In this document: positions 1 through 23,706 of the stretch, piece after piece | Numbering within the stretch: position 1 is the stretch's first letter | Layout of the letters: every line of letters begins with the position of its first letter | Origin: Acidobacteriota bacterium | Lineage (GTDB): Bacteria; Acidobacteriota; UBA4820; DSQY01 | Assembly (NCBI GenBank): GCA_049591295.1 | Contig: JBAWEQ010000259.1 | Span: forward strand, 25,812-89,811 | DNA length: 64,000 nt | Reading direction: 5' to 3' | Position numbers and translations under genes: made by a program | Notes under the pieces: model-generated | Databases searched by the model: none | What the model was told of the DNA's origin: nothing | The model's input: only the letters and a program-made list of their open reading frames with translations

Positions 1-1025
1 TTGGGCTTGAGGACCTTGCGAAGGATGACGGCCTCGGGCAGGCTCAGGCCGATGACGGCCATCATGAAGGCCAGCACCGTGCCCAGCGCCGCGCCCTTCT
101 CCATGAGGGCCTGGACGATGGGGATGATGCCGGCGGCGTTGGAGTACATGGGGACTCCGATGAGCACGGCCGCGGGCACGGCCCACCAGGCGCTCCTGCC
201 CATGAGGTGTGCCATGGCGTTGGTCGGAACGTAGCCGTGGATGCCCGCCCCCACGGCGATGCCCGCGAGGACGTAGGGCCAGACCCGGCCCACGATGTCG
301 CGCACCGCCTGCAGGCCAGCGCTGACGCGGTCGGCCCAGGTGATCTGCTCCTCCGTGTCCATCCCCGCCCCGGCCGACGTGGCATAGACCCACTCCTCCA
401 CCCATCCCTCCAGTTTCAACCTGCCGATGACGAAGCCCGCGAAGATGGCGATGATGAGGCCAGTCCCGGCATAGATGGCCGCCACCTTCCAGCCGAAGAG
501 GCCGAAGAGGAGGACGAGGGCCACCTCGTTCACCATGGGCGAGGCCACGAGGAAGGAGAGCGTCACGCCCAGGGGCACACCCGCCGTCACGAAACCGATG
601 AAGAGCGGCACTGCGGAGCAGGAGCAGAAGGGCGTGGGCACGCCCAGGAGAGCCGCGAGCACGTTCCCCGCCGACTCCCGCCTGCCCGCCAGGATGCGCC
701 GCGTGCGCTCCGGCGTGAAGAAGCTGCGGAGGATGCCCACGCCGAAGACCACGAGCAGCAGGAGCATGAGAACCTTGGGGGCCTCGAAAAGGAAGAACTG
801 CACCGCCATCCCGAAGCGCGAGATCTCGGCCAGGCCCGCCAGATCGAAGGCTACCCATTTGGAAAAAGGCTCCAGGACCCAGTAGAGGGCTATCCAGATG
901 GCCAGCGCTGGGATGCCGGCGAGAAGGTAGCGACCCGGGCCCCGGTTTAGCCGGGGAGAGGCCTCGCTGGGGCGTCCGGTTCCGGTTGCGCCCGAGGGTT
1001 CGGCGGGTATTTCTTGAGCTCTCAC
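1..1025 (-). CDS. arsP: ArsP-type permease (DUF318/COG0701), C-terminus runs off the left edge of the window; probable GTG start at 1025
   Basis: Reverse-strand translation gives a multi-TM protein with the TPFCSCSAVP motif that is diagnostic of ArsP organoarsenical efflux permeases. The gene was found by manual translation and is not in the ORF track because it has no ATG start. Hydrophobic helices continue throughout. Confidence 0.65.
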   Translation of the reverse strand, partial: MRAQEIPAEPSGATGTGRPSEASPRLNRGPGRYLLAGIPALAIWIALYWVLEPFSKWVAFDLAGLAEISRFGMAVQFFLFEAPKVLMLLLLVVFGVGILRSFFTPERTRRILAGRRESAGNVLAALLGVPTPFCSCSAVPLFIGFVTAGVPLGVTLSFLVASPMVNEVALVLLFGLFGWKVAAIYAGTGLIIAIFAGFVIGRLKLEGWVEEWVYATSAGAGMDTEEQITWADRVSAGLQAVRDIVGRVWPYVLAGIAVGAGIHGYVPTNAMAHLMGRSAWWAVPAAVLIGVPMYSNAAGIIPIVQALMEKGAALGTVLAFMMAVIGLSLPEAVILRKVLKP

Positions 1026-1038
1026 TTCCTGCCCTTTC

Positions 1039-1758
1039 TCAGCGTCCGTGGTCGCCACAGCGCGCCTTGGCCGCATCTGGCCGCTCTCCCGTCACGGGGT
1101 ACGGGAAGGCAGGCAGCACGGTCACCTCGTAGAGCGAAGCGGGCGGCGAGGCAAGCAACCGATGGATGAACGTCAGCTGAAGGCCCTGCACCCGGGCGAT
1201 GAGCGGCCCGTCGCACCCGGCAGCCCTCAATGTCTTCTCCATGGCCGGCAGGCCGGCCGGCTTGACGCCCGGCTTGAGGCGCACCGCTACGGCCTTGCCC
1301 GTGGAGCGGCGCACCAGAATCCATTCGTCGCCGAGGGTCTTGTCGATCACCAGGGTTCCGTAGAGGGTTCTGGCCCCGGTCAGGTAGGCCGCCACGTCAG
1401 AGTAACAGGGCGAGGCGTTCGTCGCGGCGGCCACGTCGGTGCGGTCCACGATCCCGCCCGGGAAGAGCGTCTTGAGCCCCAGGGTAATGCCCTGTGCCGC
1501 GGCGATCAGTCCGTCGCACGGATGCCCGTGGAACCGAACCAGATCCGCCAGCGTCACCTCCTGCGGCGTTTCCGACATGGGGCCAAGGCTCGACTCGGTG
1601 TCCAGCACACGAATCAGAACCCGCGAGGCCGCATGCGGCGTCAGCGGGGCATAGCCGGCTGTCCCTCCGGCGGACGCCACGACGCGGCTGGCCGTCACCG
1701 AGACGCCCAGGAGAACGGCCGCCAGTCCCAGGAAGGCCTGAATGGCTCGCCGGCTCAC
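1039..1758 (-). CDS. Secreted FmdE/FwdE-domain protein
   Basis: N-terminal signal-like hydrophobic segment and an FHGHPCDG motif typical of the formylmethanofuran dehydrogenase subunit E domain. Its 4-nt overlap with the upstream Trx gene indicates an operon. Confidence 0.55.
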   Translation of the reverse strand: MSRRAIQAFLGLAAVLLGVSVTASRVVASAGGTAGYAPLTPHAASRVLIRVLDTESSLGPMSETPQEVTLADLVRFHGHPCDGLIAAAQGITLGLKTLFPGGIVDRTDVAAATNASPCYSDVAAYLTGARTLYGTLVIDKTLGDEWILVRRSTGKAVAVRLKPGVKPAGLPAMEKTLRAAGCDGPLIARVQGLQLTFIHRLLASPPASLYEVTVLPAFPYPVTGERPDAAKARCGDHGR

Positions 1759-2006
1759 GACCGCATGGCCTCCAAGATCAACCCTTTCACGATCCCCACG
1801 CTGGGCAGCTTGCCCTGGAGGACGGCCTTGCCGTTGATGATGAGGCCGGGCGTGGTGAGGATTCCCAGGGCCGCGATGTCCTTGAAGTCGGTCACCTTCA
1901 CGACCGTGGCCTCCACCTGGAGATCTTCGAGCGCCTTGATCACCCGGGCTTCGAGTTCCTGGCAGTTCCGGCAGCCGGGGCCTGCCACGCGAATATCGAG
2001 GTTCAT
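1755..2006 (-). CDS. Small thioredoxin-fold redox-active disulfide protein (Trx_3 family)
   Basis: 83 aa with a CRNC CxxC motif and a GILTTPGLIINGK segment. Its 4-nt overlaps at both ends indicate an operon. Confidence 0.7.
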   Translation of the reverse strand: MNLDIRVAGPGCRNCQELEARVIKALEDLQVEATVVKVTDFKDIAALGILTTPGLIINGKAVLQGKLPSVGIVKGLILEAMRS

Positions 2007-2031
2007 GGATGGACTCCTTTCTTCGAAAAGT

Positions 2032-2739
2032 TCAGGCTCCCCCCATCAGGGGCGCCCCGATGACGTACAGGCCAAGACACAGGATCAGCGCCCCAGCTCC
2101 GCGGCGCAGCCAGAGATTGGCGCTGGCCCATCGGCGGCTTGACAGCAGCCCTCTCACGGCACCCATGGAAACGCCTGCCAGGAGCACGAGCATGCAGTGG
2201 CCGAGGGCGTAAGTCAGCAACAGGCCCCCTCCGTAAAGGACGCTTCCCTTGGCGGCGATGAAGGCCAGGAGCACGGCCAGGATGGGCACCGCGCAGGGCG
2301 TCGAGATGACGCCGAAGAGAATGCCCAGGAGGAAGGCGCCCAGGGCGCCCCGGCTACGAGGCCTGAGGGGCAGCGCCAGGCCCAGGCGCAGCGGGAGCCA
2401 TCCCAGCATGTGCAGCCCCATCACGAGGCAGACTCCCCCGATGAGGTAGGGCCAGAATCGCCCCTGGACGCCGAAGAGCCTGCCCAGCAGGGCCGCGGCT
2501 AGGCCCAGGACGGTGAAGGTCAGGGCCAGCCCCGCCACCATCGAGAGGGCGTAGAGCATGGATCGCCTGAGCGACGAGGCCTGCTCGCTGCCCCCGACAT
2601 AAGCCAGAACGAGCGGGATGCTCACGAGCACGCACGGGTTGCTCGCGGTCAGGAGCCCGCCCAGGAAGGCCGCCCCGAAGGCAAGCACGGGCGCCGTCTC
2701 GATGAGATTCCCGAACTGGCTCAAAAGCCCTTCCATCAA
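2032..2739 (-). CDS. ccdA: CcdA/DsbD-family transmembrane thiol-disulfide electron transporter
   Basis: Polytopic membrane protein with conserved Cys in the first TM segment (ASNPCVL) and in the core (STPCAVP), which is the DsbD_2 architecture. Confidence 0.75.
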   Translation of the reverse strand: MMEGLLSQFGNLIETAPVLAFGAAFLGGLLTASNPCVLVSIPLVLAYVGGSEQASSLRRSMLYALSMVAGLALTFTVLGLAAALLGRLFGVQGRFWPYLIGGVCLVMGLHMLGWLPLRLGLALPLRPRSRGALGAFLLGILFGVISTPCAVPILAVLLAFIAAKGSVLYGGGLLLTYALGHCMLVLLAGVSMGAVRGLLSSRRWASANLWLRRGAGALILCLGLYVIGAPLMGGA

Positions 2740-3158
2740 TGGCTCCGCTCGACACCCATCTTAGTGAAGATCTTCTCCACCTCCTCGAAGGGCAGGTAGC
2801 CCACGTGCCGTTCGAACTCTTTCCCGTCGGCAGTGAAAAAGATCTGCGTAGGGATCATCATGATCTTATACTCCCGGGCCGCCTCAGGCTTCTTGTCCAG
2901 GTCGATGAATTCGATGACCGCCTTGCCTTTGTAGCGGAGCTCGGCCTCCTGGAGAACCGCCACCATCTGCTTGCACGGGATGCACCACGTCTTGCCCAGA
3001 TCCACCATCCGGGGCAGGGCCCGGGGATCCGCCGGCCTCCCGGCGGCCGTCTTCTCCGGCGGAGGCGCCGCCTTCCCGCCCCGAACTCCAGCCATAACCC
3101 ACACCGACATCAGGATCAAAACCAGGAATACCGCACCCGCGACGACTCTCCTCATCAT
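2736..3158 (-). CDS. Membrane-anchored TlpA-like thioredoxin
   Basis: N-terminal TM anchor followed by a thioredoxin fold with a WCIPC active site. Its 4-nt overlap with ccdA indicates an operon. Confidence 0.7.
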   Translation of the reverse strand: MMRRVVAGAVFLVLILMSVWVMAGVRGGKAAPPPEKTAAGRPADPRALPRMVDLGKTWCIPCKQMVAVLQEAELRYKGKAVIEFIDLDKKPEAAREYKIMMIPTQIFFTADGKEFERHVGYLPFEEVEKIFTKMGVERSH

Positions 3159-3478
3159 TGGTCCCTCCTCTTGGTCATTCTCTTCGACGGGACGCCACCA
3201 CCGGCGCAGGGAAGTCCGGCGGCGCGAAGCACGGCCCGCGCGTTTTCATCCGTGATCCGATAGAAGACCATGGCCCCCTCGCGCTCATCCACGATGATGC
3301 CGTGATCCCTCAAGATGGTCAGGTGCCGGGCCAGGGTCGGCTGGGGAACCCGGAGCTCCGGCAGCATGCGGCACGAGCACTGCCGGCCCTCCCGCGCCAG
3401 AAGGCAGAGGATCCTCAGGCGCAACGGATGACCCAGGTCTCGAAATAATCTGGCTTGTGAAGCGAGCGATTCGGCCAC
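3155..3478 (-). CDS. ArsR/SmtB-family transcriptional repressor (GTG start)
   Basis: HTH_5 signature (LRLRILCLL...QPTLARHLTILRDHGII) and a GGAGGG RBS 5 nt upstream. It is the first gene of the operon. Confidence 0.75.
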   Translation of the reverse strand: MAESLASQARLFRDLGHPLRLRILCLLAREGRQCSCRMLPELRVPQPTLARHLTILRDHGIIVDEREGAMVFYRITDENARAVLRAAGLPCAGGGVPSKRMTKRRDQ

Positions 3479-3498
3479 TTTCCCTCCAAAAATCCAAT

Positions 3499-3516
3499 TA
3501 TTCGGATATCCGAATA
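3499..3516. promoter_or_regulatory. Perfect 18-bp palindrome TATTCGGATATCCGAATA, candidate ArsR operator
   Basis: Exact inverted repeat about 20 nt upstream of the arsR-like start codon, in a region that is otherwise non-palindromic. Confidence 0.6.
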
Positions 3517-3670
3517 TAAAGTCAAGGCCGGCGCTGATCCGCCGAGGGTGGGGGACTACAAGACCCCATCGGTTCGGTGCCGGCGGCTGGTGAACCGCCG
3601 CCTTTCTGGCGTAAGGTCACCAGCTCCGAAAGACCGATCTTCGAGCTTGCGCAGATTCTCGATCCGAGCC

Positions 3671-3703
3671 AAAAAAAGAAAGGGGGCCCCGAAGGGCCCC
3701 GGC
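3671..3703 (-). terminator. Rho-independent terminator downstream of the OMP gene
   Basis: On the minus strand the sequence reads GGGGCCC-TTCG-GGGCCCC followed by CTTCTTTTTTT, a GC stem with a UUCG tetraloop and a U tract. It lies about 47 nt after the OMP stop codon. Confidence 0.65.
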
Positions 3704-3749: not shown

Positions 3750-4322
3750 TCAGAAACGCACCACCAAGCCGATGCGTGCATCGCCGATGTCCGTCTTGTC
3801 GCTCACGTAACGGACGGAGTCAAAGCCCATATGCGTGTAGGTGAGCTGGAAAGACATGCCCACATTCGGCGTGAAAAAGCGCCGGTAGCCGAAGCCCACC
3901 TCCCCCGCCCACTTGGTCTGAGAAGGCTGATGGACGTACAGGGCACGGCCGCCGTCATGGATCCAGTAGTCCTTCGACTGCATCTCAGCAACGCCCGTGC
4001 CGACGAAGACGAAGAACTGGTCCTTGTCGGTCAGGTTGTAGTCGTACTCGGGGGCGATGGTGAAGGTCCAGATGTTGTTGGTCGTGCTGTTCAGACTGTC
4101 CTTGATCTTGCCGTCCCAGTAGGTGGCGTGGAAGGCGAGCTTCCAGTTGTCGGTGAAGTTGTAGGCGATGCCGGTGCTCGTGTTCCAGTCGCTGTTCATG
4201 AAGTTGCTGGAGGTGTAGTAGCCGCCCTGCAGCTCCCACGTCCAGGGGTTCTTCGGCGCTTGTGCCATGAGCGCCAGGCCGGTCGTCATAAGGGCCAATA
4301 CCGCGATCACGAGCTTTTTCAT
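3750..4322 (-). CDS. Outer-membrane beta-barrel protein (OmpW/OmpA-like porin family)
   Basis: Signal peptide MKKLVIAVLALMTTGLALMAQA, alternating aromatic/hydrophilic beta-strand pattern, C-terminal Phe, and a strong GGAGG RBS. Confidence 0.7.
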   Translation of the reverse strand: MKKLVIAVLALMTTGLALMAQAPKNPWTWELQGGYYTSSNFMNSDWNTSTGIAYNFTDNWKLAFHATYWDGKIKDSLNSTTNNIWTFTIAPEYDYNLTDKDQFFVFVGTGVAEMQSKDYWIHDGGRALYVHQPSQTKWAGEVGFGYRRFFTPNVGMSFQLTYTHMGFDSVRYVSDKTDIGDARIGLVVRF

Positions 4323-5997: not shown

Positions 5998-6477
5998 CTA
6001 CAGGGGTATCACCAGGGCCACACGAACCGACTCGGTGCCGGGGTTGTGGCGGGCCACACCGCCGTTCGAGTAGTGGAAGACCCCAATCCCCAGCCGGTAC
6101 CCCCTGCCGAGATGATAGAACAGCTCCAGTCCCGACCGGAACTCCAGGTGGCTCCCCAGGTCGTAGTGGTGATCCGAATAGCGGCCGGGGCCGGAGGTCA
6201 GAGACGCGCTCCAGCGGTCTGAAAAAACGTACTGAAGGGTCAGATTGAGCCCCTCGTAATTCTCTAGAGAACTGACGTCCAGCACGCCACCGGCGCCCCA
6301 AGAGAGCTTCCCCCAGGAATGAAAGAGGTGGCGCAGTTCCAGAGACCCGTAAAGGTGCCGGTTCTGGTTCTGGACGTTGCCCACGGCGGGACCCACCAGC
6401 ACGAAGGTCTCTCCCGCCAAGGCCGGCCAGCCTACGATGAACAGCGCGGCCATGAGAAGCCTCTTCATCCTCAGCAT
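5998..6477 (-). CDS. PagL-like outer-membrane lipid A 3-O-deacylase
   Basis: Signal peptide, a small beta-barrel, and a C-terminal FHYSNGG motif containing the His-Ser catalytic pair of PagL. Confidence 0.55.
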   Translation of the reverse strand: MLRMKRLLMAALFIVGWPALAGETFVLVGPAVGNVQNQNRHLYGSLELRHLFHSWGKLSWGAGGVLDVSSLENYEGLNLTLQYVFSDRWSASLTSGPGRYSDHHYDLGSHLEFRSGLELFYHLGRGYRLGIGVFHYSNGGVARHNPGTESVRVALVIPL

Positions 6478-6535: not shown

Positions 6536-7813
6536 TTAGGCGAGCCACCCCGCGGCGCCCAGAAGCGCCCCCGCGGCCAGGGGGAAGACGGGATGCACCT
6601 TGAACTTCAGGAGCAACAGGAGGGCCAGGGCCATGAGCGCCCAACCGGGCAGGCCGTGGAGGGCCGAAGGGCCGAGGAGCACGGCCGCACCCACGATGAG
6701 CCCGGCTACGGCGGGCGAGACCCCCGCGAGGAAGTCCTCGAAGCGCGCGTTGCCCTTGAAGCGCACGTATCCCAGCGTGAGCACCGTCATGAGGGCCATG
6801 GCGGGGGCGAAGAGGGCCAGGGTGGCCGCGAGCGCCCCGCTCACGCCGTGCAGATGGTAGCCGGCGAAGGTGGCGAGGACGGCGATCGGGCCGGGCGTGA
6901 GGTTGCTGATGGCTACGCCATCCAAAAATTCGCGGTTGTTGAGCCAGTGGAGCTGGGTCACGAGTTTCTGGTGGAGGATGGGTATGAGGACGAAGCCGCC
7001 CCCGAAGAAGACGAGGCCCACCTTGAGGAAGGTCCAGACCAGGGCCGCCAGGGACGTGCCAGCCGCGGCCTGTGACGCGCCTGGGACGGTGAAGGCCTGA
7101 ATAGGGAGGACGGGAGAGCGGGAGGGTAACTCCTGGGGCATTCCCGGCTCTCCTCCTCCCCTCTCTTCCTCCTTGTGAACAGATCCTCCGCCCGTGCCGC
7201 CCGCCTTCGGGGGGCTTCCGCCGCCCAGCCGCCGATTGCCCGTCAGAAGCCCCAACGCGCCAGCCGTGGCCAGCACGTAGACGGCGTTGACCTTGAGCAG
7301 CGAAAGGGCCAAGGCCAGGAGGGCCACCACCACGGCGGGCCAGCTTCGGAGGGCCTTCCGCCCCAGGGACCAGGCGGCGGCCACGATGAGGGCGATGACC
7401 ACCGGCCCCACACCCTGCACCGCAGCCTGGAGCGAAGGGATGCTGTGGTAGGCGAAGTAGAGCCAGGACAGGAGGATCACGAGAAGCACTGAAGGCACCA
7501 TGAAGGCGCCCGCGCACAGGAGCCCCCCCAACGGCCCGAAGAGCCTGCACCCCACGAAAAAGGCCGTGTTGACCGCGAAGGGGCCAAGGAGCTGGCTGAA
7601 GCCCACGCCGTGCAGGAACTCCTCCGCCGGGAGAAGCCGGCGCTTCAGGACCAGATCCCTCTCCATCAGCGCGATCACCGCCATCCCACCGCCGAAACCA
7701 ATGGCACCGATGATCAGGAAACGGAGCATCAGCGAAGGGAGGGAAGCGCTGGACGCCGCTTGATCGCCCTCGTTCCCTGTCGGAGATTCTGGCTCGGCCT
7801 TCATCCTGCGCAC
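6536..7813 (-). CDS. chrA: Chromate transporter ChrA (duplicated CHR domains)
   Basis: Two homologous halves, each with FGGG motifs (IGFGGGMAVIAL and LVFFGGGFVLIPIL). A 425-aa polytopic membrane protein. Confidence 0.8.
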   Translation of the reverse strand: MRRMKAEPESPTGNEGDQAASSASLPSLMLRFLIIGAIGFGGGMAVIALMERDLVLKRRLLPAEEFLHGVGFSQLLGPFAVNTAFFVGCRLFGPLGGLLCAGAFMVPSVLLVILLSWLYFAYHSIPSLQAAVQGVGPVVIALIVAAAWSLGRKALRSWPAVVVALLALALSLLKVNAVYVLATAGALGLLTGNRRLGGGSPPKAGGTGGGSVHKEEERGGGEPGMPQELPSRSPVLPIQAFTVPGASQAAAGTSLAALVWTFLKVGLVFFGGGFVLIPILHQKLVTQLHWLNNREFLDGVAISNLTPGPIAVLATFAGYHLHGVSGALAATLALFAPAMALMTVLTLGYVRFKGNARFEDFLAGVSPAVAGLIVGAAVLLGPSALHGLPGWALMALALLLLLKFKVHPVFPLAAGALLGAAGWLA

Positions 7814-7817: not shown

Positions 7818-8912
7818 TCAGCGGCCCATCCGCAAGCTTGTCAGCAGCACGTACTGAATCTGAAAGCGCCACGTGTGGGTGTAGGCTTCGCTCCCACCGC
7901 GCGGCGAGAGGTAGTCGGCCACCAGGCGCAGCGGCACGCGGCGAAAGTCGTAGGTAACGCTGGAGTCCCATTGCCTCAGCGACGGGGCCGAGCCGGCGTG
8001 CAGGTCGGGCGTGAACCATTCGTAGCGCAGGGCGAGGATGATCTGCCGGATCGGCAGGTACGCCACCTGGCCGTAAGCGCCGTGGGCGATGATCTCTCCG
8101 CCCCGGTCGGGGGAGAGCCAGGCGCGGAAGTATTCGGCCTGGCTGCGCACCTTGCCCCAGCCCGCTTCCGCGAAGGCGTTGAGGCGGCTGTCGCGGCCGG
8201 CGAAGCGGCTCGTGAGCTTCTTGCTGAGCCCCGTCAGCTCGGAGGAAAGATTCATGTCCGCGTCGTGCCGGTCCGAGGCAGCCAGCCCCGTTCGCCAGAA
8301 CCACGGCGTGCCGCCGTCCAGCCCCTTCCCGCCGTAGCTGAGGCGCGCCACGCCAAGGGGGCCGTTGCCTTTACCATTCATGTTGGCGCCTTCGCCCTGG
8401 AAGAGGCCGGCGGAGAATTCCCAGCCGCCGTGGTTGAAGTCGCCCTCTACCCCCCGGTCGCGGGCAAAACTCTTGCCGAGGTTTCCGTTCACGACCATGC
8501 GGTTGGTCAGGTCGGTCCGGTCGATGAGGTCGAGGGCCGAATCGGGCTCAAAGCGTTCAAGGCCGAAGGGGGGCACGAACTGGCCCACCTTGAAGGCGAG
8601 GCCGCGGGATTCCGGCACCACGACGTAGGCGTCTTGAAGGTAGATCTGGTCGTCGGTGGAGCTTGAGAGGTTGGTCTTGTAGACGAATTGCACGTGGTAG
8701 TGGAGGCCGTCCTGGGGACCACCGTCCAGCATGGCCTTGAAGCGGCGGATCGCCCACGCATCATCCCCCTTGCTCGGATCGGTGTAGCGGAACTGGATGT
8801 AGGAGCTGAGCACGGGCAGGTAGGGCGGGGAGGCCGTCGCGCCGTCGGCGAACACCGCCGTTCCGCTGACGGTGAGGACAAGGAGAACGACCAGGCCGAT
8901 GCGCGATCTCAT
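7818..8912 (-). CDS. Phosphate/oxyanion-selective porin (OprO/OprP family)
   Basis: Internal start MRSRIGLVVLLVLTVSGTAVFA is a signal peptide, and the beta-barrel carries Porin_O_P-like motifs. The ATG overlaps the stop codon of the upstream CDF gene (ATGA). Confidence 0.65.
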   Translation of the reverse strand: MRSRIGLVVLLVLTVSGTAVFADGATASPPYLPVLSSYIQFRYTDPSKGDDAWAIRRFKAMLDGGPQDGLHYHVQFVYKTNLSSSTDDQIYLQDAYVVVPESRGLAFKVGQFVPPFGLERFEPDSALDLIDRTDLTNRMVVNGNLGKSFARDRGVEGDFNHGGWEFSAGLFQGEGANMNGKGNGPLGVARLSYGGKGLDGGTPWFWRTGLAASDRHDADMNLSSELTGLSKKLTSRFAGRDSRLNAFAEAGWGKVRSQAEYFRAWLSPDRGGEIIAHGAYGQVAYLPIRQIILALRYEWFTPDLHAGSAPSLRQWDSSVTYDFRRVPLRLVADYLSPRGGSEAYTHTWRFQIQYVLLTSLRMGR

Positions 8913-9832
8913 ACGTGATCCTCCCAATGGCCCAGCAGTTCTGTCTCCCCGTAGCCCGTCACTTCGGGCTCCAGCGTTGCGTGGGTGATGGCCCACTCCT
9001 CGTGCAGGTGCTCCCGGATCTCGTCGAAGAGCTTCTCGGCGGCGCTGGCCGCCATGTCTTGCTCCAAGGCCACGTGGGCCGTGAGCAGGCGCTGACCGGG
9101 GCCGTTCTGCCAGACGTGGAGGTGGTGGAGCCGCACCGTAGGGAAGGCCCTGCCCACGGCCTGGGCGATGGCCTCGGGGTCGGCGCCGGATGGCGCCCCC
9201 TCCATGAGCGTGGAGACGGTCTCCCATACGAGTGACAGGGCGCTGCGCAGGACGGCGAGGCCCACCAGGAGCGCCGCCGCCGGGTCCACGTAGGGCCCCA
9301 TGCGCGTGTGGGCCAGGAGAGCGGCGATGACCACCGCAAGAGAGGCCAGCGCGTCCTGGGCCATATGGAGAAAGGCGCTGCGCACGTTGACGTCGTCTTT
9401 GTCATGGTGTTTCAACAGGAAGACCGACCCCACGTTGGCGAAGAGCGCCACGAGCGCCACGGCAAGCATGAGCCCCTGCTGGACCGGCTCCGGGTGCGCA
9501 AAGCGCACGAAGGCCTCGCGGGCGATGAGAACGGTGATGGCGATGAGGACGACGGCGTTCGAGAGGGCCGCGAGCACCTCCGCCCGCTTGAAGCCGTAGG
9601 TGTGGCGCGCCGTCGGCGCGCGCCGCCCGAAGCGCCGGGCCCAGAGGGCCAGCACCACCGCCGCCACGTCGCTCAGGTTGTGAGCCGCGTCCGACAGAAG
9701 CGCCAGGCTGCCTGATAAGAGGCCGCCGAAGAATTCGGCCAGCGTGATGGCCCCGTTGAGGGCCGCGCTCGCCCAGAGTCTCCGGTCCATGAAGCCGTTT
9801 TCGGGGATCTCGTGGCTGTGGTTATGACTCAT
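8909..9832 (-). CDS. Cation diffusion facilitator family transporter (CzcD/ZitB-like)
   Basis: His-rich N-terminus (MSHNHSHE), six TM helices with an HNLSD motif, and a C-terminal cytoplasmic domain (HLHVWQ). Confidence 0.8.
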   Translation of the reverse strand: MSHNHSHEIPENGFMDRRLWASAALNGAITLAEFFGGLLSGSLALLSDAAHNLSDVAAVVLALWARRFGRRAPTARHTYGFKRAEVLAALSNAVVLIAITVLIAREAFVRFAHPEPVQQGLMLAVALVALFANVGSVFLLKHHDKDDVNVRSAFLHMAQDALASLAVVIAALLAHTRMGPYVDPAAALLVGLAVLRSALSLVWETVSTLMEGAPSGADPEAIAQAVGRAFPTVRLHHLHVWQNGPGQRLLTAHVALEQDMAASAAEKLFDEIREHLHEEWAITHATLEPEVTGYGETELLGHWEDHV

Positions 9833-9882: not shown

Positions 9883-9895
9883 CCGAATTTTCCGC

Positions 9896-10507
9896 CTACC
9901 CCTTGTACCCCGAGCACGGGATGCAGTACGGCTTGCCGTCCTTCGTGCGCACGTAGCGTTCGAAAACGAGTTCGCCGCAGCCCGTGCAGATGGCGCTGGC
10001 GAAGGAGCCCTTGGGCGGCTGGTAGTGGAAGTCGGGCCGCTCGGCCACGGAGTAGATCGTCTCACCGGGCAGGCTCAGGCCCCAGTCGATGACCTGCTGG
10101 GTGACGGCCTCCGGGATGCCCGAGGGCTCGATTCCCTTTTTCCGGTAAGTGAAGAATTCGAATCCGCCCATCTCCTTGAGAAACGCGGGTTTCAGGTTGT
10201 AGCGGACGGGGGTCTTGCCTGGATACCAGAAGGTCGCCGCGAGCTTGCCCCAGTAGGTTCTCTCGATGAGAGTCTTGCCGAAAGTGGCGCCCGTGGCGAT
10301 CTGGATGCCGTCCATCAGGCACGTCTGGGGATGCCCCTCGCCCAGCTCGCAGACGACGTGAAGGGCGTGATCCTTCTCCCGCTCGACGCCGAGCTTCTCG
10401 ATCGCCAGGATGCCCATGCGGTAGCCCAACGGCATAAAGGGGCACTTGTGGCCGTGGAACTGGAAAGCCCAGTCGGGTGGCACGAAGTGTTGGTTGGCTT
10501 GAGTCAT
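9896..10507 (-). CDS. FmdE/FwdE-domain protein with C-terminal zinc ribbon
   Basis: FHGHKCPFMPLG motif of the FwdE family, plus a C-terminal CTGCGE...CIPC double CxxC. Confidence 0.65.
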   Translation of the reverse strand: MTQANQHFVPPDWAFQFHGHKCPFMPLGYRMGILAIEKLGVEREKDHALHVVCELGEGHPQTCLMDGIQIATGATFGKTLIERTYWGKLAATFWYPGKTPVRYNLKPAFLKEMGGFEFFTYRKKGIEPSGIPEAVTQQVIDWGLSLPGETIYSVAERPDFHYQPPKGSFASAICTGCGELVFERYVRTKDGKPYCIPCSGYKG

Positions 10508-11061: not shown

Positions 11062-14000
11062 TCAGGAATCTGTCTTCCTCCCAAATCTCCCAGCCACCTT
11101 GGTTTGCAGCGTGTCGAACAGTTCGTAGAACACGGGAACGTAGATCAGCGTCAAGAAGGTGGAGACCGTGAGGCCGCCGATGGCCACCACCGCGAGAGGG
11201 CTGAGCCGCTCCAGGCCGATGGCCCACTGCAGGGCGATGGGAAGCATGCCCACGGCGGTGCCGACGGCGGTCATGAGGATGGGGCGGGTCCTGACTCTTA
11301 CCGAGCCCACCAGGGCGTCGTGGCGGCTCTCCCCGCGAGCCCGCGCCTCCAGGATGAAGTCGATGAGCAGGATGGAGTTCTTCACCACGATGCCCGCCAG
11401 CAGGATCATTCCCATGAAGGAGGGCATGCACGAGTGCTTGCCCGTCAGCAGCATGGCCCACGCGGCGCCGATGATGCCAAGAGGGATGGCCACCATGATG
11501 GTGAGCGGGTGCAGGAAGGACTTGAAGGCCGGCACGAGGGAGAAGTAGAGCAGGATCAGGCCCAGGAGCAGCGCCTTCATGAGGGCCGAAAAGGCTTCAT
11601 CCATGGTCTTGCGCTCGCCCTCGTCCTGAATGGTATACCCCGGCGGCAGCTTCAGCCCCTTGAGCGCGGCTGCCACGTTGTCGTTGATGTGGGTCACGGC
11701 CGCGGTGCTGCGGTAGCCGAGCACGTCCACCGTCTCCTGAAGGTTCTGCCGGGTGTGGAGCGTGGGGACGAAGTCCCGCTCCACGCGGCCCAGGGAGGAG
11801 AGCGGGATGGGGCCGCGCGGGGTGAGGATGGGCAGGGTCGTCAGGTCCTGCGGGTTCTGGCGCCGCTGGGCCCGGGCCTGCACCCAGACGGCGAAGGAGT
11901 CCTGGCCGGGCACCCGGAAGAGCGTGGCCGGAAAACCCTTCACCTGGGCGCTGACTTGGGCCGCGACCATGGCCGCGTCGGTGCCGTAGATGGCCATGCG
12001 GTCGGCGTCGGGGAAGAACCGGTATTCCAGGCGGTCCAGGGTCCACGTCGGGACCACGGCGGTGAGGCCTCCGACCGTCTTGACCCGCTTCGCCACCTCC
12101 TGCTGGAGCTGGGACAGCACCTTGGGATCGGGACCCGAGATCATGAGGTCCACGGTGGAACGGATGGTCGAGAGAGGGGTGGCGCCATAGTCGAACGCGG
12201 CCGGGAAGCGGATCCCGGGGATCTTGAGAAGCCGGTCCTCCACCGCCTTCTCGATCTGCCACATCGTCTCCTTGCGCTGGAAGCGGTTCACGAGGTGCAC
12301 GGTAATGAAGGCCTGCTGGGGGTTTCGGCCGGAGCCGAAGGAGAGGATGCCCGGTTCGGAGCCAAGGGTGGACGAGATCATGGTCACGCCAGGCTGCTTC
12401 TGGATCGCGCCCTCCACCTTCGAGAGCAGGGCCTCCGTCTCCTCCAGGGAGGTGTTGGGGTAGGCCTCGAAGGTGACGCGGAAAATGCCCGTGTCCATGG
12501 GCGGCATGAGGTCCCGCCCGATGAGGGGCATGAGCACCCGGCCCGTCAGCACGAGCAGCATCATGGCCGGAAGGATGAAGAAGATTTTGTGCCCTAGGGC
12601 GAAATCCACGGCCGAAACGAAGAACTCCTGGATGCCATGGAGGATCTTGCCCGTCACGATCTGGTCGAGCTTCAGCTCCCACTTCCATCGCTCCACGCGA
12701 CCGCCGAGCCTGAGGATGAAGGGGGCCAGGATGGGCAGGATGGTCACGGACACGATGTACGAGGCGACGAGTGCGATGGAGAGCGTGAGGCTCAATGGCC
12801 TCAAGACCGTCTGGACAAAGCCGCCGATGAAGATGATGGGGAGGAGTACCACCACGGTGGCGTAAGTGCCCGAGAGGATGGCGAGCATGACCTCCTGCGT
12901 GCCGCCGATGGTCGCCTCCCGGATGTCCTTGCCGAGCTTGTGGTAGTGCCGCTCGATGTTCTCCAGGACGACGATGGCGTCATCCAGGAGCATGCCTACG
13001 CCGAGGATGACCCCCGTCAGCGTCACCAGGTCGAACTCGAAGCCGAAGAGCCACATGAAGGCGAAGGTGATGAGGTAGGTGAAGGGGATGGAGATGCCCG
13101 CCAGCATCATGCCGCGCACGTCCGCGAGGAAGAGAAAGATGACGATGATCGTCATGAGGATGGCGTCGCGCAGGGCGTCCACCATGTTGGAGACGCTCGT
13201 GTGGATCAGTTCGCCCTGCGTGTCGGCGATGGCGAAGTGAATCCCGGGGTACTGCCGCTCAAGGGTGGGCAGTTGGGCCGTCACCGAGGCGATGGTGGGC
13301 AGGGCGTAACCCGACAGGGCCCGCTGGATGTTGATGCCGATGGCCGCCGCCCCGTTGCCGTGGAAGGCCGACAGCCGCTCCTGGATGCTTCTCTCCACCG
13401 TGGCCACGTCGCGGAGGTAGATGGGCGGTCCGGCCCCCGCGCTCACGACGACGTCGCTCACCTCCTCGGGCCGCTTGAACTCCCCCTCGTTCTTGAGGAG
13501 AATGTGGCTCTGGTCCGTGACGAGAAGGCCCTCGGGAGTATTGCGGTTCCAGGCGTTCAGCGCCTGCACGACCTGGCCTGGGCTCAGGTGGTAGGCCTGG
13601 AGCTTGTTCGGGTCCAGTGTGACGCGGATGACCGGCTGGTAAGCCCCGAATACCTCCACGTTGGCCACGTCGGGAAGGCGCAGCAGCGCCTCCTTGATGG
13701 GGTTGTCGGCGAGCTGGCGGATCATGGAGAGGTCCAGGTGGGAGCCTTCCTTGGGCGTCAGCGCGAGGGTGAGGACCGCCGGCGTGGCCGAGGAGACCTT
13801 GTAGACCTGGAAGGGGCGGATGTCCGGGGGCAGGAGGGGCCGGATCTTGTTGAGCGAGTTCGAGACGTCCGTGGCCGCAGAGTCGAGGCCCTTCCTGTAG
13901 CGGAACTCGGCCATGACCACCGAGACCTCGTCGTTGGAGGTGGAGGTCACGCGGCGCACGAGTTCGACGGTCTTCAGCTCCTTCTCGATGACCCGGCTGA

Positions 14001-14187
14001 CGTCCGAATCCACGTCGTCGGCCGAGGCGCCGGGCCAGACGGTGACCACGGCGATCTGGGGCCGCTCGCTGTCCGGGAAGAGGTTGACGGGGAGCTTGAA
14101 GAAGCCCACCACGCCCACCACCGCCAGCAGCAGGACGATGGAGAGGAGCAGGTGGGGCTTCTTGACGTAGCTTTCCACCAGGCGCAT
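11062..14187 (-). CDS. RND efflux transporter permease subunit (AcrB/CzcA superfamily)
   Basis: 1041 aa with 12 TM helices and two large periplasmic loops. The N-terminus reads MRLVESYVKKPHLLLSIVLLLAVVG...FPDSERPQI. Confidence 0.85.
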   Translation of the reverse strand: MRLVESYVKKPHLLLSIVLLLAVVGVVGFFKLPVNLFPDSERPQIAVVTVWPGASADDVDSDVSRVIEKELKTVELVRRVTSTSNDEVSVVMAEFRYRKGLDSAATDVSNSLNKIRPLLPPDIRPFQVYKVSSATPAVLTLALTPKEGSHLDLSMIRQLADNPIKEALLRLPDVANVEVFGAYQPVIRVTLDPNKLQAYHLSPGQVVQALNAWNRNTPEGLLVTDQSHILLKNEGEFKRPEEVSDVVVSAGAGPPIYLRDVATVERSIQERLSAFHGNGAAAIGINIQRALSGYALPTIASVTAQLPTLERQYPGIHFAIADTQGELIHTSVSNMVDALRDAILMTIIVIFLFLADVRGMMLAGISIPFTYLITFAFMWLFGFEFDLVTLTGVILGVGMLLDDAIVVLENIERHYHKLGKDIREATIGGTQEVMLAILSGTYATVVVLLPIIFIGGFVQTVLRPLSLTLSIALVASYIVSVTILPILAPFILRLGGRVERWKWELKLDQIVTGKILHGIQEFFVSAVDFALGHKIFFILPAMMLLVLTGRVLMPLIGRDLMPPMDTGIFRVTFEAYPNTSLEETEALLSKVEGAIQKQPGVTMISSTLGSEPGILSFGSGRNPQQAFITVHLVNRFQRKETMWQIEKAVEDRLLKIPGIRFPAAFDYGATPLSTIRSTVDLMISGPDPKVLSQLQQEVAKRVKTVGGLTAVVPTWTLDRLEYRFFPDADRMAIYGTDAAMVAAQVSAQVKGFPATLFRVPGQDSFAVWVQARAQRRQNPQDLTTLPILTPRGPIPLSSLGRVERDFVPTLHTRQNLQETVDVLGYRSTAAVTHINDNVAAALKGLKLPPGYTIQDEGERKTMDEAFSALMKALLLGLILLYFSLVPAFKSFLHPLTIMVAIPLGIIGAAWAMLLTGKHSCMPSFMGMILLAGIVVKNSILLIDFILEARARGESRHDALVGSVRVRTRPILMTAVGTAVGMLPIALQWAIGLERLSPLAVVAIGGLTVSTFLTLIYVPVFYELFDTLQTKVAGRFGRKTDS

Positions 14188-14189
14188 GG

Positions 14190-15278
14190 CTACCTCCCCC
14201 GGGGGGCCAGCGGCGTTCCGGCGGTCAGGGCCATGAGTTCGCTAGGCAGGCCCGTCACCAGGACGTCTCCCGGCTGAATGGCGCCGCTCACCGTGGCCTC
14301 GGAGCCGCTTTCGCCCGTCACCGCGACGGGCACGGGATCGCTTTTGCCATCCTTCAAGCGGATCACGAGGGTCTCGCCGAGCCCCTGGAGGAGAGCCGAG
14401 GAGGGCACCACGAGACCGCTCTTGGGGGTGGAGGCATAGTGCGCGGCGAGGGTGGCACCCGGCTGGAGTCCGAATGGAGCCTGGGGCAGATCGGTTTCCA
14501 CCGTCCCCAGGTGCGCCGCGTCGAGCGCGGGATAGATTCGTGAGGTTTGGGCGGTCAGGCTCTGGCCTGCGCCGGAAAAGGTCACGGCGTCACCCGCCCG
14601 GAGCGCCGCCAGGGTCTCCTGGGAGAGCTTGGAGATGAGCTTCACCGAACCGGGGACCTGAAGGGTATAGAGCGGTTTTCCGGGAGCGGCCAGATCGCCG
14701 GGCTCCACGAGCCGCGCCGTCACCACGCCCGAGTAAGGGGCGGGCACGTTGGCGTAGCCGCGGAAGGTCCTGACGCTCTGGAGGGCCTTCTCGGCGCCGA
14801 CCTCGGCGGCCTTAACGGCCGCGAGCTGCGCCCCGCTGACGTCGAAGGCCTGTTTGGCGACGGCCTGGTTGTCGAAGAGGATCTTGTCGCGGTCGTAGAT
14901 GGCTTGTTGTTTGGCCAGATCCTCCTTCGCTGCGGAGAGGCGGGCCTGGGCCGCCTGGACGGAGTCCTCCAGCACGCTGGGGTCGATGCGGGCCATGACC
15001 TCGCCCTTCTTGACCGCGTCGCCCTCGCGGAAGCGGACCTCCAGGAGCGCCCCAGACACCTGGGCCGAAACCGTGGCCGAGGTTTCCGAGACGACGAGGG
15101 CCACGGTGTCCACCGCGCTTCCCACGGAACCGTCCTTGACCACCGCCGTGTTCACCGGAATCGGGGGATTGGGCGGCGGCAGCAGATGCCTCAGGACGTA
15201 TCGCTTATGAACGATGACGGCCGCCCCGGCGGCTATGACCGCCACGACGATCAGGATGGCGAGCAGCTTCTTATTCAT
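14190..15278 (-). CDS. RND efflux periplasmic adaptor (membrane fusion protein, HlyD family)
   Basis: N-terminal TM anchor, coiled coil, lipoyl and beta-barrel domains. Lies 3 nt from the RND gene. Confidence 0.8.
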   Translation of the reverse strand: MNKKLLAILIVVAVIAAGAAVIVHKRYVLRHLLPPPNPPIPVNTAVVKDGSVGSAVDTVALVVSETSATVSAQVSGALLEVRFREGDAVKKGEVMARIDPSVLEDSVQAAQARLSAAKEDLAKQQAIYDRDKILFDNQAVAKQAFDVSGAQLAAVKAAEVGAEKALQSVRTFRGYANVPAPYSGVVTARLVEPGDLAAPGKPLYTLQVPGSVKLISKLSQETLAALRAGDAVTFSGAGQSLTAQTSRIYPALDAAHLGTVETDLPQAPFGLQPGATLAAHYASTPKSGLVVPSSALLQGLGETLVIRLKDGKSDPVPVAVTGESGSEATVSGAIQPGDVLVTGLPSELMALTAGTPLAPRGR

Positions 15279-16608
15279 GATCTCCTCCCCGTGCGGTCAC
15301 GAAGGCCAGGTAGTCGACGGCGCTCTGGTAGGCGTAGAGGCCCCGCCAGTAGGCCGTTTCCCCCGCCAGCTCCTCTCCCCTCGCGGCCAGGTAGTCCTCC
15401 ATCTTCCCCGTTCCCTGCTCCAGCTTTAGGTGCTCTACGCGGGCCACCTCCCGGCCCAGACCCCGCTGCGCCTTCCCCGCCTGGTAGAGCGCCTTGGCGG
15501 CTTCGAGGCGGCCCTGGGCGTCGGCCACCTGGGTGGTGATTTCCAGCTCCTTGGCGCGCTCCCGCTGCTTGGCTGCCAAGAGAGTGGCATCCGCCTCCTG
15601 GATGGCGTAGACGCGGCTCAGGCCGTTGAACAGTGGCACCTTCAGCATGAGGGTCCACTCCCTCGTGTCGAGGGGATCCCTGAGCGACGGCGCGTCGTTG
15701 CGGAGGTAGGTGGCCTGCAGGACGAGCTGCGGCGAGAAGGCCTCCAGCGCCAGGTGCTTTTTGTGTTCGAAGATGCGCGTGGCGTCCCGTGAGGCGAGCA
15801 GGTCGCCCCGTCCCGAAAGGGCTGCCCGGGTATTGGCATCCGGAGACGCGGCGGGCGCCGGTGGCTCTCCCTCGACCTCCTCCAGGTCGTAGCCTCCGGC
15901 GGGAGGCTCCCGGCCCATGAGAGCCGCGAGGGTGGCCTGGGCCGTTTCCGACTGGGCGGCGAACTCGGCCACCTGCGCCTCGGCCCCGCGCAGAGCGTAG
16001 GTGACCTTGGCCGCGTCCACGGGAGCCCACGCCCCGACCTTGACCTTGAGCTGCGCGTCGGACTCATCCTTCTCCAGCGCCGCCCGATAGGCCTGCGCCG
16101 CTTCCATGGCGTGCTGGACGATGAGCGCGTTACGGTAGGCCGCGCGGACGTTGTAGCGGATCTGGTCCCGCGTGAAGAGGGCCAGGTGCTCGGAGGCGTT
16201 TCGCGAGAGCCTCGCGATGCGGTCGCCCTCGTGGAGCCCCCCGGCCGCCAGGAGTGGGACCTGCCAGGTGAGGCCGTAGTGGACCTGGTTGCGGTCCCAC
16301 GGAAGCTGGCTCATGCCCAGGGCGGGAACCACGAAGAGCTCCTCGGCCATGGGCACGACGATGCGGTCTCGCTCGAAGTGGTTGTAGACGCCGACCACAT
16401 CCAGCTCGCCGAAGTGGCGCCCGAAGGTCTCCGCCGTTCGCTTTCCGGCCGCCACCGCATCCAGCTTCGCCGCCTGCAATGCGGGATTGGCTGAGAGCGC
16501 CGTGCTTTCGGCTTGCGCAAGGCTCAACGGCTCGGCCGCATGAACCGGCATACAAATCACCGCGGCCAGCAGGCACGCGCCCGCCGCCGCCCTCCAGACT
16601 CTGTTCAT
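15271..16608 (-). CDS. TolC-like outer-membrane efflux protein
   Basis: Signal peptide and the duplicated OEP repeat architecture. Overlaps the MFP gene. Confidence 0.8.
   Translation of the reverse strand: MNRVWRAAAGACLLAAVICMPVHAAEPLSLAQAESTALSANPALQAAKLDAVAAGKRTAETFGRHFGELDVVGVYNHFERDRIVVPMAEELFVVPALGMSQLPWDRNQVHYGLTWQVPLLAAGGLHEGDRIARLSRNASEHLALFTRDQIRYNVRAAYRNALIVQHAMEAAQAYRAALEKDESDAQLKVKVGAWAPVDAAKVTYALRGAEAQVAEFAAQSETAQATLAALMGREPPAGGYDLEEVEGEPPAPAASPDANTRAALSGRGDLLASRDATRIFEHKKHLALEAFSPQLVLQATYLRNDAPSLRDPLDTREWTLMLKVPLFNGLSRVYAIQEADATLLAAKQRERAKELEITTQVADAQGRLEAAKALYQAGKAQRGLGREVARVEHLKLEQGTGKMEDYLAARGEELAGETAYWRGLYAYQSAVDYLAFVTARGGDHE

Positions 16609-22641: not shown

Positions 22642-22645
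<4 letters not shown>
22217..22645 (-). CDS. arsC: Arsenate reductase, LMW-PTP/thioredoxin-coupled type
   Basis: 142 aa with a CTGNSCRS P-loop and downstream Cys82/Cys89-type residues. It is the C-terminal portion of the 366-aa ORF in the track. Its ATG overlaps the acr3 stop (ATGA). Confidence 0.8.

Positions 22646-23702
<1,057 letters not shown>

Positions 23703-23706
<4 letters not shown>

Follow-up and report, generated by a model that had tools for sequence, protein, structure and literature searches.

A candidate ArsR-controlled envelope module that may join an ArsP-family permease and a thiol relay to an exported FmdE-fold protein

At the start of a 64,000-nucleotide stretch of DNA from an Acidobacteriota bacterium (GenBank assembly GCA_049591295.1, contig JBAWEQ010000259.1, positions 25,812 to 89,811; hereafter the window), six genes on the minus strand form an operon that we read as an ArsR-repressed, arsenic-linked module for detoxification in the cell envelope, a version of the arsR-arsEFG-arsP type of cluster that also includes a periplasmic component not described before, an exported protein of the FmdE fold. 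On the comparative data described below we would put the chances of this reading at about even. Bacterial arsenic resistance has been described as cytoplasmic chemistry combined with efflux across the inner membrane, and an envelope set of this kind, in which a thiol relay is combined with an exported His2Cys2 protein and which is found in at least 80 species from about ten phyla, would add a step that follows export.

Results

The six co-directional genes run from position 3478 to beyond position 1 and encode, in this order, ArsR, a membrane-anchored thioredoxin, CcdA, Trx_3, the FmdE-domain protein and a permease (Table 1), with every domain confirmed by Pfam and NCBIfam matches. Strand apart, which is the minus strand, this is the gene order of the original prediction, and the architecture it had proposed (an ArsP-family permease under ArsR control, combined with a thiol relay directed to the periplasm and with an FmdE protein that is exported) holds. 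So do the identities given to ArsR (HTH_5, and NF033788 above its cut-off), CcdA (PF02683, with two cysteine motifs in membrane helices), the CRNC protein as Trx_3 (PF13192; by TIGR00412 it additionally belongs to the ArsE family) and the secreted HGHPCDG protein as an FmdE-domain protein (PF02663, hydrophobic signal sequence). Two labels had to be narrowed, namely those of the thioredoxin and the permease.

The thioredoxin had been called a TlpA protein with a WCIPC site. Its membrane anchor and its WCIPC motif stand, the family name does not: the protein stays below the TlpA/ResA-type models (ResA, 26.6 bits against a cut-off of 170; StoA, 25.6 against 210), has in Pfam only the generic thioredoxin matches PF00085 and PF13098 and none of the Redoxin/AhpC-TSA type, and resembles, among NCBIfam models, the C-terminal domains of DsbD and TsoB, which makes it DsbD-gamma-like. 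No match to the ArsF model (NF040494) was obtained. It thus appears TlpA-like in role (anchored, periplasmic, WCxPC) rather than by family membership. Its predicted partner CcdA carries a single cysteine in each of the motifs ASNPCVL and STPCAVP, both of them kept in relatives, and matches the central domains of DsbD and TsoB while failing the ArsG model (NF040495; 44.4 bits against a cut-off of 200). In the third thiol protein, Trx_3, no signal sequence was seen.

As for the permease, its TPFCSCS motif had been taken as diagnostic of ArsP. The motif is indeed present in a PF03773 protein, and the match covers profile positions 2-270 of 294, with the remainder lying beyond the window edge. It is not, however, diagnostic: a C(S/T)C motif occurs in all ArsP homologs of ars operons, where the prefix LAV marks cluster 1 and tPF cluster 2 (Yang et al. 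2015, PMC4435449), so that tPF denotes one of two ars-operon clusters, and CSC is found in SO_0444 Cu/Zn exporters and in SaoE as well (Haft, bioRxiv 10.1101/2022.07.06.499078). We consider the window permease an ArsP-family member of the tPF cluster, as judged from family and motif; what it transports could be As(III), an organoarsenical or a soft metal. Its start is most plausibly the GTG at 1025, from which a V/M-[RK]-AQE start conserved in relatives is read; the ATG at 1076, picked by gene calling on L001 (a metagenome contig of 15 kb whose genes are identical), is not conserved and was rejected.

The repressor carries Cys34 and Cys36 (RQCSCRM), which align exactly with Cys32 and Cys34 of E. 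coli K-12 ArsR (ELCVCDL) in helix alpha-3, and lacks the third cysteine of the E. coli protein (Cys37). The latter is dispensable in ArsR, and the window protein fits a sensor of the As(III) type as far as its sequence goes.

Table 1. Positions of the genes and control elements of the three ArsR-led operons in the window
Feature	Position	Strand	Details
PF03773 (ArsP_1) permease, first 341 of 366 aa	1..1025	-	PF03773 212.9 bits vs cut-off 32.3; TPFCSCS; cut by window start
Exported FmdE-fold protein, 239 aa	1039..1758	-	PF02663 48.1 bits vs cut-off 22.9; signal sequence about residues 1-30; VxDTESSLG
Cytoplasmic mini-thioredoxin Trx_3, 83 aa	1755..2006	-	PF13192 79 bits; TIGR00412 MTH895/ArsE 79.3 bits vs cut-off 62; GCRNC
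CcdA / DsbD-beta-type thiol-disulfide conduit, 234 aa	2032..2736	-	PF02683 67.2 bits; PF13386
Anchored periplasmic thioredoxin, 140 aa	2736..3158	-	PF00085 45 bits; PF13098; N-terminal transmembrane (TM) helix, Pro/Ala linker, WCIPC
ArsR/SmtB repressor, 107 aa	3155..3478	-	HTH_5; NF033788 74.2 bits vs cut-off 55
Sigma-70-like promoter TTGACT-17-AATAAT	3497..3525	-	10/12 matches; 19 nt 5' of ArsR GTG
Perfect 18-nt palindrome TATTCGGATATCCGAATA	3499..3516	.	Overlaps spacer and -10 element; candidate ArsR operator
Terminator-like hairpin and T-run	3683..3700	-	7 G-C pairs, then CTTTCTTTTT; ends upstream outer-membrane protein gene
Porin O/P-like gene	7818..9227	-	Second ArsR-led operon
CDF transporter	8909..9832	-	Second ArsR-led operon
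Cytoplasmic FmdE with dksA/traR zinc finger	9896..10507	-	Between RND pump and CDF gene
RND pump	11062..14187	-	TM4 motif LLDDAIVVLEN, not DGA form
Membrane-fusion protein	14190..15278	-	Second ArsR-led operon
Outer-membrane factor	15271..16608	-	Second ArsR-led operon
arsM	21240..22067	-	Canonical ars operon
arsC, low-MW-phosphatase type	C-terminal part of ORF 22217..23317	-	Canonical ars operon
acr3	about 22650..23700	-	Canonical ars operon
arsR (LCVCQ)	23703..24113	-	Canonical ars operon

To judge whether this arrangement is conserved, the neighbourhood check that had been proposed beforehand was carried out with FmdE-family motifs on one genome per species (185,579 species), which yielded 244 relatives; the best 80 loci, each from a different species genome, were analysed, and neighbours were counted within 6 kb and on the strand of the FmdE homolog. 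These loci represent about ten phyla (Acidobacteriota, Desulfobacterota, Thermodesulfobacteriota, Nitrospirota, Planctomycetota and Verrucomicrobiota/Kiritimatiellae/Lentisphaerae, besides Armatimonadota, Omnitrophota, Hydrogenedentota, Krumholzibacteriia and Alphaproteobacteria), and their hosts are uncultured bacteria of soils, sediments and hot springs. Many of the 'conserved' minus-strand clusters are shadow ORFs antisense to high-GC genes and were left out. Trx_3 accompanies FmdE in 63 loci, the PF03773 permease in 57 and ArsR in 53, with all three together in 46; the pair of anchored thioredoxin and CcdA is present in 22, an ArsF and ArsG pair in 12 and any relay component in 43, and just seven loci have no recognised partner. 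Many of the 80 are cut by contig ends; when only those 31 loci are taken that extend for 6 kb or more to either side, the permease is found in 24, Trx_3 in 26, ArsR in 26 and the relay in 18. The check was passed. The gene set recurs around homologs in 73 of the 80 species genomes, and the operon arrangement lies far beyond chance. Gene content is kept, gene order is shuffled between phyla, and this combination is, at the level of genome comparison, the signature of a functional module, whose constant core is ArsR, permease, Trx_3 and FmdE with the relay as a frequent accessory.

Both ArsP clusters known from ars operons partner with FmdE. Thirty of the 57 permeases belong to the window's subfamily and the matching ORFs carry TPFCSCS (ORFs without the motif come from permease genes split over two reading frames, L008 and L012 being examples), while the other 27 form a second subfamily, mostly with LAVCSCT or LAACSCT. 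In about ten related loci the FmdE module is adjoined by triads of an RND pump, a membrane-fusion protein (MFP) and an outer-membrane factor (OMF), these pumps having a TM4 motif of the DDA type and not DGA, the form typical of the classic heavy-metal RND pumps. Further neighbours were noted. A Cys-rich protein with a DGC domain (PF08859, 111 bits) occurs in 14 related loci and is frequent in the operon versions of Planctomycetota and Verrucomicrobiota (L050 4678-5091, L086 6634-7008), and TauE/SafE membrane proteins (PF01925) flank FmdE in nine loci.

The link of the operon to arsenic, which the original prediction had drawn from the ArsP-type permease, gains independent support from these neighbourhoods. 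ACR3 (TIGR00832, 444 bits against a cut-off of 283) and/or ArsM (NF008823, 347 bits against 263) lie beside the module in 21 of the 80 loci and in several phyla. Proteins that pass the NCBIfam cut-offs for ArsF and ArsG were found in 15 and 12 loci, respectively, the former count excluding four alternative-frame ORFs over arsR (L009, L010, L012, L014). The closest plasmid homolog of the window permease (63% identity) sits on a Comamonas plasmid in the order arsR-arsC-arsD-arsA-arsC-acr3-...-permease-Trx_3, followed by rhodanese, OsmC and CDF genes. On plasmid p1 of Alicyclobacillus sp. SO9 from a mining district, an FmdE homolog of 37% identity with all subfamily motifs (L089 6935-7588) is embedded in arsD-arsA-arsA-x-FmdE-arsR-arsB-arsC-arsC-trxB. 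Since this homolog lacks a signal peptide and yet stands inside an arsDA-arsRBC operon, the arsenic link of the FmdE family is not tied to the periplasm or to PF03773. In the library searched, no paper links FmdE with arsenic or arsenite, the single one that names both FmdE and arsenic being irrelevant, and none pairs 'formylmethanofuran dehydrogenase subunit E' with arsenite.

Three lines of evidence connect the thiol relay to the FmdE protein. One is that the window operon has no exported soluble product other than FmdE. Another is provided by Rosetta-stone fusions: P0124 consists of a signal peptide, an FmdE part 44% identical to the window protein (E 7e-47) and, behind a linker, a C-terminal thioredoxin with GCIPC that is 36% identical to the anchored thioredoxin of the window (E 5e-22), and it is encoded in an operon of the order ArsR-ArsP_1-Trx_3-[FmdE-Trx]-DGC-Trx-DsbD_TM. 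P0140 is a fusion in the opposite order (Trx-FmdE) and P0159 joins a rhodanese to FmdE (L091 5712-6701) within ArsR-Trx_3-ArsP_1-[fusion]-x-DsbD_TM, so that two of the three fusions stand in the same type of operon as in the window. The third line is displacement in situ. In L008 (5864-9715; FmdE 76% identical) the order is ArsR-ArsF (102 bits)-ArsG (268 bits)-ArsE-FmdE-permease as compared with ArsR-Trx-CcdA-ArsE-FmdE-permease in the window. All ArsF proteins of the loci have RCxxC on an anchored thioredoxin-like fold and the ArsG proteins have two membrane cysteines of the DsbD type (SPCP and FCP). Hence ArsF/ArsG and thioredoxin/CcdA look like interchangeable versions of one device, and because bona fide ArsF and ArsG take the place of thioredoxin and CcdA in related loci, our data suggest that the former may work as a relay for thiols and disulfides, be it instead of or in addition to serving as nitroreductase subunit and permease. 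ArsF/ArsG in the thioredoxin/CcdA position were also noted in L013, L017, L021, L023, L027, L033-L035, L037, L040 and L050.

Other fusions and companions of the module deserve mention in their own right. Four proteins of about 435 aa (P0144, P0146, P0153, P0172) combine an alpha-acetolactate-decarboxylase-like domain (PF03306) with an FmdE domain of the secreted type, and L092 has such an AAL_decarboxy-like-FmdE fusion (6001-7299) in the order Trx_3-rhodanese-ArsP_1-[fusion]-AAL_decarboxy-like-CDF. Rhodanese domains recur with the module (L083 8270-8713, L088 8684-9148, L092 4568-5014, and the one fused to FmdE in P0159), some of them beside permease-Trx_3 on the Comamonas plasmid and beside FmdE on a Sulfuricella plasmid; they could be rhodaneses of the arsenate-reductase type or serve sulfur transfer, thio-arsenicals perhaps included. 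A gene resembling mtrA (NF002126, 103 bits, below cut-off) closes the operon of the FmdE-Trx fusion (L086 8494-9159, L087 8730-9209). Its product is related to the corrinoid-binding methyltransferase subunit, and the gene hints at methyl-transfer chemistry.

The FmdE protein itself bears the motif FHGHPCDG with H77, H79, C81 and C118 as predicted metal ligands. All four are invariant in 59 aligned sequences, as are the VxDTESSLG strand and a DRTD motif, and the spacing between the cysteine of F76-H77-G78-H79-P80-C81 and C118 is 37 residues compared with 36 in 2GLZ. In crystal structures solved by the JCSG, FHGHxC together with a cysteine 36 residues downstream binds Zn or Ni tetrahedrally (2GLZ, 2GVI), most PF02663 genes adjoin metal-ion transporters, and most family members have no association with formylmethanofuran dehydrogenase genes (PMC2954224). 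None of the latter (fmd/fwd) was seen in the first 27 kb of the window, in L001 or in related loci. An AF2 model of the protein (pLDDT 90.2) retrieved with Foldseek, at E<=1e-3, only the FmdE structures 2glz, 3d00 and 2gvi, which make up the top four hits (E 1e-6 to 2e-5), while PDB searches with the sequence and with the family profile found no FmdE structure. An N-terminal hydrophobic export signal is present in 56 of 59 family members and a lipobox in 13, which points to a branch that is exported in diderm bacteria. This branch is small and distinct: 239 relatives were recovered from 5.8 billion proteins, and among 1.84 billion cluster representatives, searched exhaustively with a profile, no more than 343 clusters matched at E<=1e-3 and 58 at E<=1e-30. 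The earlier idea that FmdE handles a metal or metalloid in the periplasm and is served by the relay is compatible with the conserved His2Cys2 site, the export signals and the FmdE-thioredoxin fusions.

The uniform 4-nt overlaps that had been described for the gene junctions apply only in part. ArsR/thioredoxin (ATGA) and Trx_3/FmdE (GTGA) do overlap by 4 nt; the other three junctions differ, in that thioredoxin and CcdA overlap by 1 nt if CcdA starts at ATG 2736 and by 4 nt if it starts at TTG 2739, CcdA and Trx_3 are separated by 25 nt with a ribosome-binding site (GAAAGGAG) before Trx_3, and FmdE and permease by 13 nt, likewise with a ribosome-binding site. One promoter-type site was found in front of arsR where 0.1 would be expected in shuffled sequence. 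The 16-nt core of the palindrome that overlaps it is unique in the window (0.07 expected), recurs identically 5' of arsR in the two closest relatives (L003, L004) and is symmetrically changed to ATCCGGATATCCGGAT in L008, making it likely, from its sequence and position, that this is the ArsR operator. As searches that allowed up to four mismatches gave mostly chance matches, only exact sites and symmetric two-mismatch sites directly 5' of arsR were used. The terminator-like hairpin appears to mark the 5' boundary of the operon. At the other end, L001 completes the permease and the operon stops there, with a PagL gene some 220 nt further on.

Upstream of the operon, minus-strand genes between 3750 and 7813 include an outer-membrane protein beta-barrel (3750..4322), a PagL-like lipid A deacylase (5998..6477) and a chromate transporter (6536..7813); the PagL gene after the operon (L001 8621-9112), beyond the window, is thus a second one. 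Farther along, a second ArsR-led operon (7818-16940, minus strand), whose ArsR has an ECVCS motif, contains the other FmdE gene that had been proposed to lie in a CDF/RND operon, and its presence there is confirmed. The encoded cytoplasmic protein is only 23% identical to the secreted FmdE; it was missed by tblastn with the latter at E<0.01 and found by scanning for HG[HY]xC. Next comes a 1007-aa sensor histidine kinase (17125-20148, minus strand) with repeated PAS/GAF-like regions, as judged by eye, situated between this operon and a canonical ars operon arsR-acr3-arsC-arsM (21240-24113, minus strand), 18 kb from the ArsP operon. With three ArsR-led operons inside 24 kb, the region looks like a metal(loid)-resistance neighbourhood.

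Discussion

How might such a module work? In the scheme we favour, a thiophilic metalloid, most likely As(III) or a trivalent organoarsenical, would bind the CxC site of ArsR, which would leave the palindrome and allow the operon to be expressed. The permease would export the metalloid to the periplasm, served by Trx_3/ArsE either as substrate chaperone or as keeper of its CSC thiols; we regard the permease as the main partner of Trx_3 because the two are paired almost obligatorily, even where CcdA is missing. Through CcdA, reducing equivalents of the cytoplasm would reach the anchored thioredoxin, and this in turn would keep Cys81 and Cys118 of FmdE as thiols in the oxidising periplasm, ready to capture the exported species and then hand it on or transform it. 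With the RND/MFP/OMF triads of some ten loci, a hand-off across the outer membrane is conceivable.

Several observations weigh against an arsenic detoxification role of this kind. The FmdE site binds Zn or Ni in crystals, and His2Cys2 is no classical tri-thiolate site for As(III); moreover, a merely stoichiometric binder would by itself not detoxify catalytically. The reading as a whole is built on comparative inference. The permease fails every NCBIfam equivalog cut-off (SaoE, 125 bits against 325; SO_0444, 95 against 300), its nearest named relatives being a Cu/Zn exporter (SO_0444) and SaoE. Nor does the CxC of ArsR settle the inducer: it is also present in the ArsR of the RND/CDF operon, and an alpha-3 CxC occurs in Cd, Pb and Zn sensors of the ArsR/SmtB family too. 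Fifty-nine of the 80 loci have neither Acr3 nor ArsM within 6 kb, and about half lack a dedicated relay, hence its accessory status. The Alicyclobacillus homolog, with no signal peptide and cytoplasmic in a Gram-positive host, shows that the function would not strictly depend on a periplasm. Rhodanese and TauE neighbours and fusions hint that there is room for sulfur chemistry, perhaps with thio-arsenicals. Finally, the published ArsEFG model, as far as it is reflected in NCBIfam names, assigns nitroreductase and permease roles and not a thiol relay.

Some of these points would suit a soft-metal system instead, exporting Zn, Ni, Cd, Cu(I) or Hg with FmdE as a relay-reduced metallochaperone in the manner of CusF or MerP. 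The crystallised FmdE proteins bind Zn or Ni through the same four ligands and their family mostly adjoins metal-ion transporters (PMC2954224), the other FmdE of the window has an RND pump on one side and a CDF transporter on the other, the module is followed by CDF genes in L092 and on the Comamonas plasmid, the named relatives of the permease are SO_0444 (Cu/Zn efflux) and SaoE, and the ArsR/SmtB family includes many metal sensors. Yet it is ACR3/ArsM (21 loci), ArsF (15) and ArsG (12) that keep company with FmdE, while no P-type ATPase, mer or cop family is among the 30 most frequent ORF clusters near it; an FmdE homolog lies inside an arsDA-arsRBC operon, the closest plasmid permease in an ars operon, and the ArsR cysteines match the As(III) site of E. 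coli. So to us, a soft metal as the principal substrate seems rather unlikely. We also think it unlikely, and somewhat more so, that the relay protects other envelope thiols (the CSC of the permease, apocytochromes c, Dsb proteins) with FmdE acting independently, for instance as an enzyme. The constant core of permease, Trx_3 and FmdE without a relay in about half of the loci would agree with such independence, and in one FmdE crystal structure an unidentified ligand covalently bound to the distal cysteine suggested a catalytic site (PMC2954224). FmdE is moreover fused to enzyme-like domains, AAL_decarboxy-like and rhodanese. Against it stand the FmdE-Trx and Trx-FmdE fusions, the fused thioredoxin being of the same CIPC type as in the window and P0124 belonging to the same type of operon, and the position of FmdE as the sole exported soluble protein of the operon.

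Three further explanations appear still less probable. Under ArsEFG chemistry, aromatic arsenicals of the roxarsone or nitarsone type would have their nitro groups reduced by thioredoxin-like proteins, the DsbD-like protein would export the amino products and FmdE would be an accessory; such roles are given by NCBIfam names and by text citing Chen, Zhang & Rosen 2019 (Environ Sci Technol 53:6182). Trx_3 does pass the MTH895/ArsE model and L008 does have bona fide ArsF and ArsG in the corresponding positions, but the window CcdA fails the ArsG model (44 against 200 bits) and an ArsF match is missing, two TM cysteines of the DsbD type (in CcdA and ArsG alike) and an anchored CxxC protein (ArsF) fit a thiol relay better, and synthetic nitroaromatic arsenicals are an improbable selective agent over some ten phyla. 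We judge this account very unlikely. Slightly less plausible still is, to us, sulfur or selenium trafficking, in which a reactive species (persulfide, sulfite, thioarsenate or selenide) would be handled under a BigR/TsoR-like sensor of the ArsR family. It could draw on the weak similarity that the regulator shows to BigR (54 bits) and TsoR (40 bits), and CcdA and the thioredoxin to the selenoprotein TsoB, on rhodanese neighbours, the rhodanese-FmdE fusion and TauE/SafE in nine loci, and on the SaoE-SaoT pair as an analogue of permease plus Trx_3; however, all BigR, TsoR and TsoB matches are far below curated cut-offs, the regulator has the CxC of ArsR, the contexts are those of ACR3, ArsM and ArsDA, and the rhodanese fold includes arsenate reductases. 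That CcdA and the thioredoxin are coincidental neighbours, i.e. housekeeping genes for cytochrome c maturation, we consider next to negligible. Admittedly, CcdA with a ResA/TlpA-like protein is the classical reductant pathway of cytochrome c maturation System II, but the start/stop overlaps within one ArsR-led operon, the fusion proteins and the recurrence of Trx plus CcdA or ArsF/ArsG with FmdE in 34 species speak otherwise, and no ccsBA or ccm genes were seen nearby; on gene context and fusions, the cytochrome c maturation reading was rejected.

A more far-reaching proposal, which we advance tentatively and hold to be possible rather than probable, generalises the arsenic detoxification module of the window. 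According to it, arsenic detoxification would have an undescribed periplasmic arm, in which a DsbD-type conduit (CcdA plus thioredoxin, or ArsG plus ArsF) feeds an exported FmdE metalloprotein that binds or processes trivalent (organo)arsenicals released by ArsP-family permeases; ArsG would be the electron conduit, ArsF its thioredoxin partner and the FmdE fold a thiol-dependent metal(loid) module. Were the envelope set to be confirmed, the FmdE family, long uncharacterised and with a fold that has stayed unexplained since the 1990s, would gain a first functional context for one distinct, exported branch, and ArsF and ArsG would be open to a testable reinterpretation as a DsbD-like relay. Annotation would improve as well for gene strings that read 'permease / thioredoxin family protein / formylmethanofuran dehydrogenase subunit E'; these occur commonly in metagenomes from soils and sediments and bear on arsenic cycling.

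Comparison with known systems

Each part of the operon belongs to a known family, and both ArsP and ArsEFG have been described from ars operons; what we have not found described is an exported FmdE protein as a conserved partner of ArsP-family permeases, fusions of FmdE with thioredoxin, or the equivalence of ArsF/ArsG to thioredoxin/CcdA. The window permease belongs to the same Pfam family (PF03773) as the organoarsenical efflux permease ArsP of C. jejuni (TC 2.A.119) and carries, within a membrane helix, the C(S/T)C motif common to ArsP homologs of ars operons; it is ArsR-controlled and has homologs in ars operons. The likeness is one of Pfam family and motif, and CSC is common to SO_0444 and SaoE too. 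The structural-genomics FmdE proteins (2GLZ, 2GVI, 3D00) have the same fold and the same FHGHxC plus distal cysteine. In contrast to them, the window protein is exported (relatives may be lipid-anchored), lacks a C-terminal zinc finger, has an extra N-terminal strand (VxDTESSLG) and a C-terminal helical region, and is too divergent to be detected by sequence profiles in the PDB.

The operon also resembles ArsEFG (TIGR00412, NF040494, NF040495), given that Trx_3 is of the ArsE family and that in either pair an anchored thioredoxin-like protein with CxxC is joined by a DsbD-superfamily protein with two TM cysteines. It differs in that the window pair fails the ArsF and ArsG models and in that the roles described for ArsEFG are nitroreduction and efflux and not a periplasmic thiol relay, with no FmdE component mentioned in the text consulted. 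The SAO locus, too, places a PF03773 exporter with CSC (SaoE) beside a CxxC thioredoxin-like protein of about 85 aa (SaoT) and has been proposed to handle thiophilic metals or organometals (Haft, bioRxiv 10.1101/2022.07.06.499078). The window permease scores well short of the SaoE cut-off, however, and its operon has an ArsR/arsenic context instead of the SAO ABC importer, SaoL or selenoproteins.

Small periplasmic metallochaperones that pass thiophilic species to or from a membrane transporter are familiar from CusF-CusCBA and MerP-MerT. By analogy, the window operon may pair a periplasmic binder with a transporter, and RND/MFP/OMF triads stand by FmdE in about ten related loci; the folds are unrelated, though, the window operon has no RND pump of its own and any hand-off is hypothetical. 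In its redox part, the module may be likened to the DsbD/CcdA to TlpA to ScoI/CoxB route, which serves copper-site assembly, and to ScsB-ScsC, which serves copper tolerance. The logic would be the same, with a membrane conduit reducing an anchored thioredoxin that keeps a cysteine-containing metal-binding protein in its thiol form, whereas the target here would be an FmdE fold instead of a Sco or thioredoxin fold, the thioredoxin lies outside the TlpA/ResA family, and the whole is linked to arsenic genes and a PF03773 permease.

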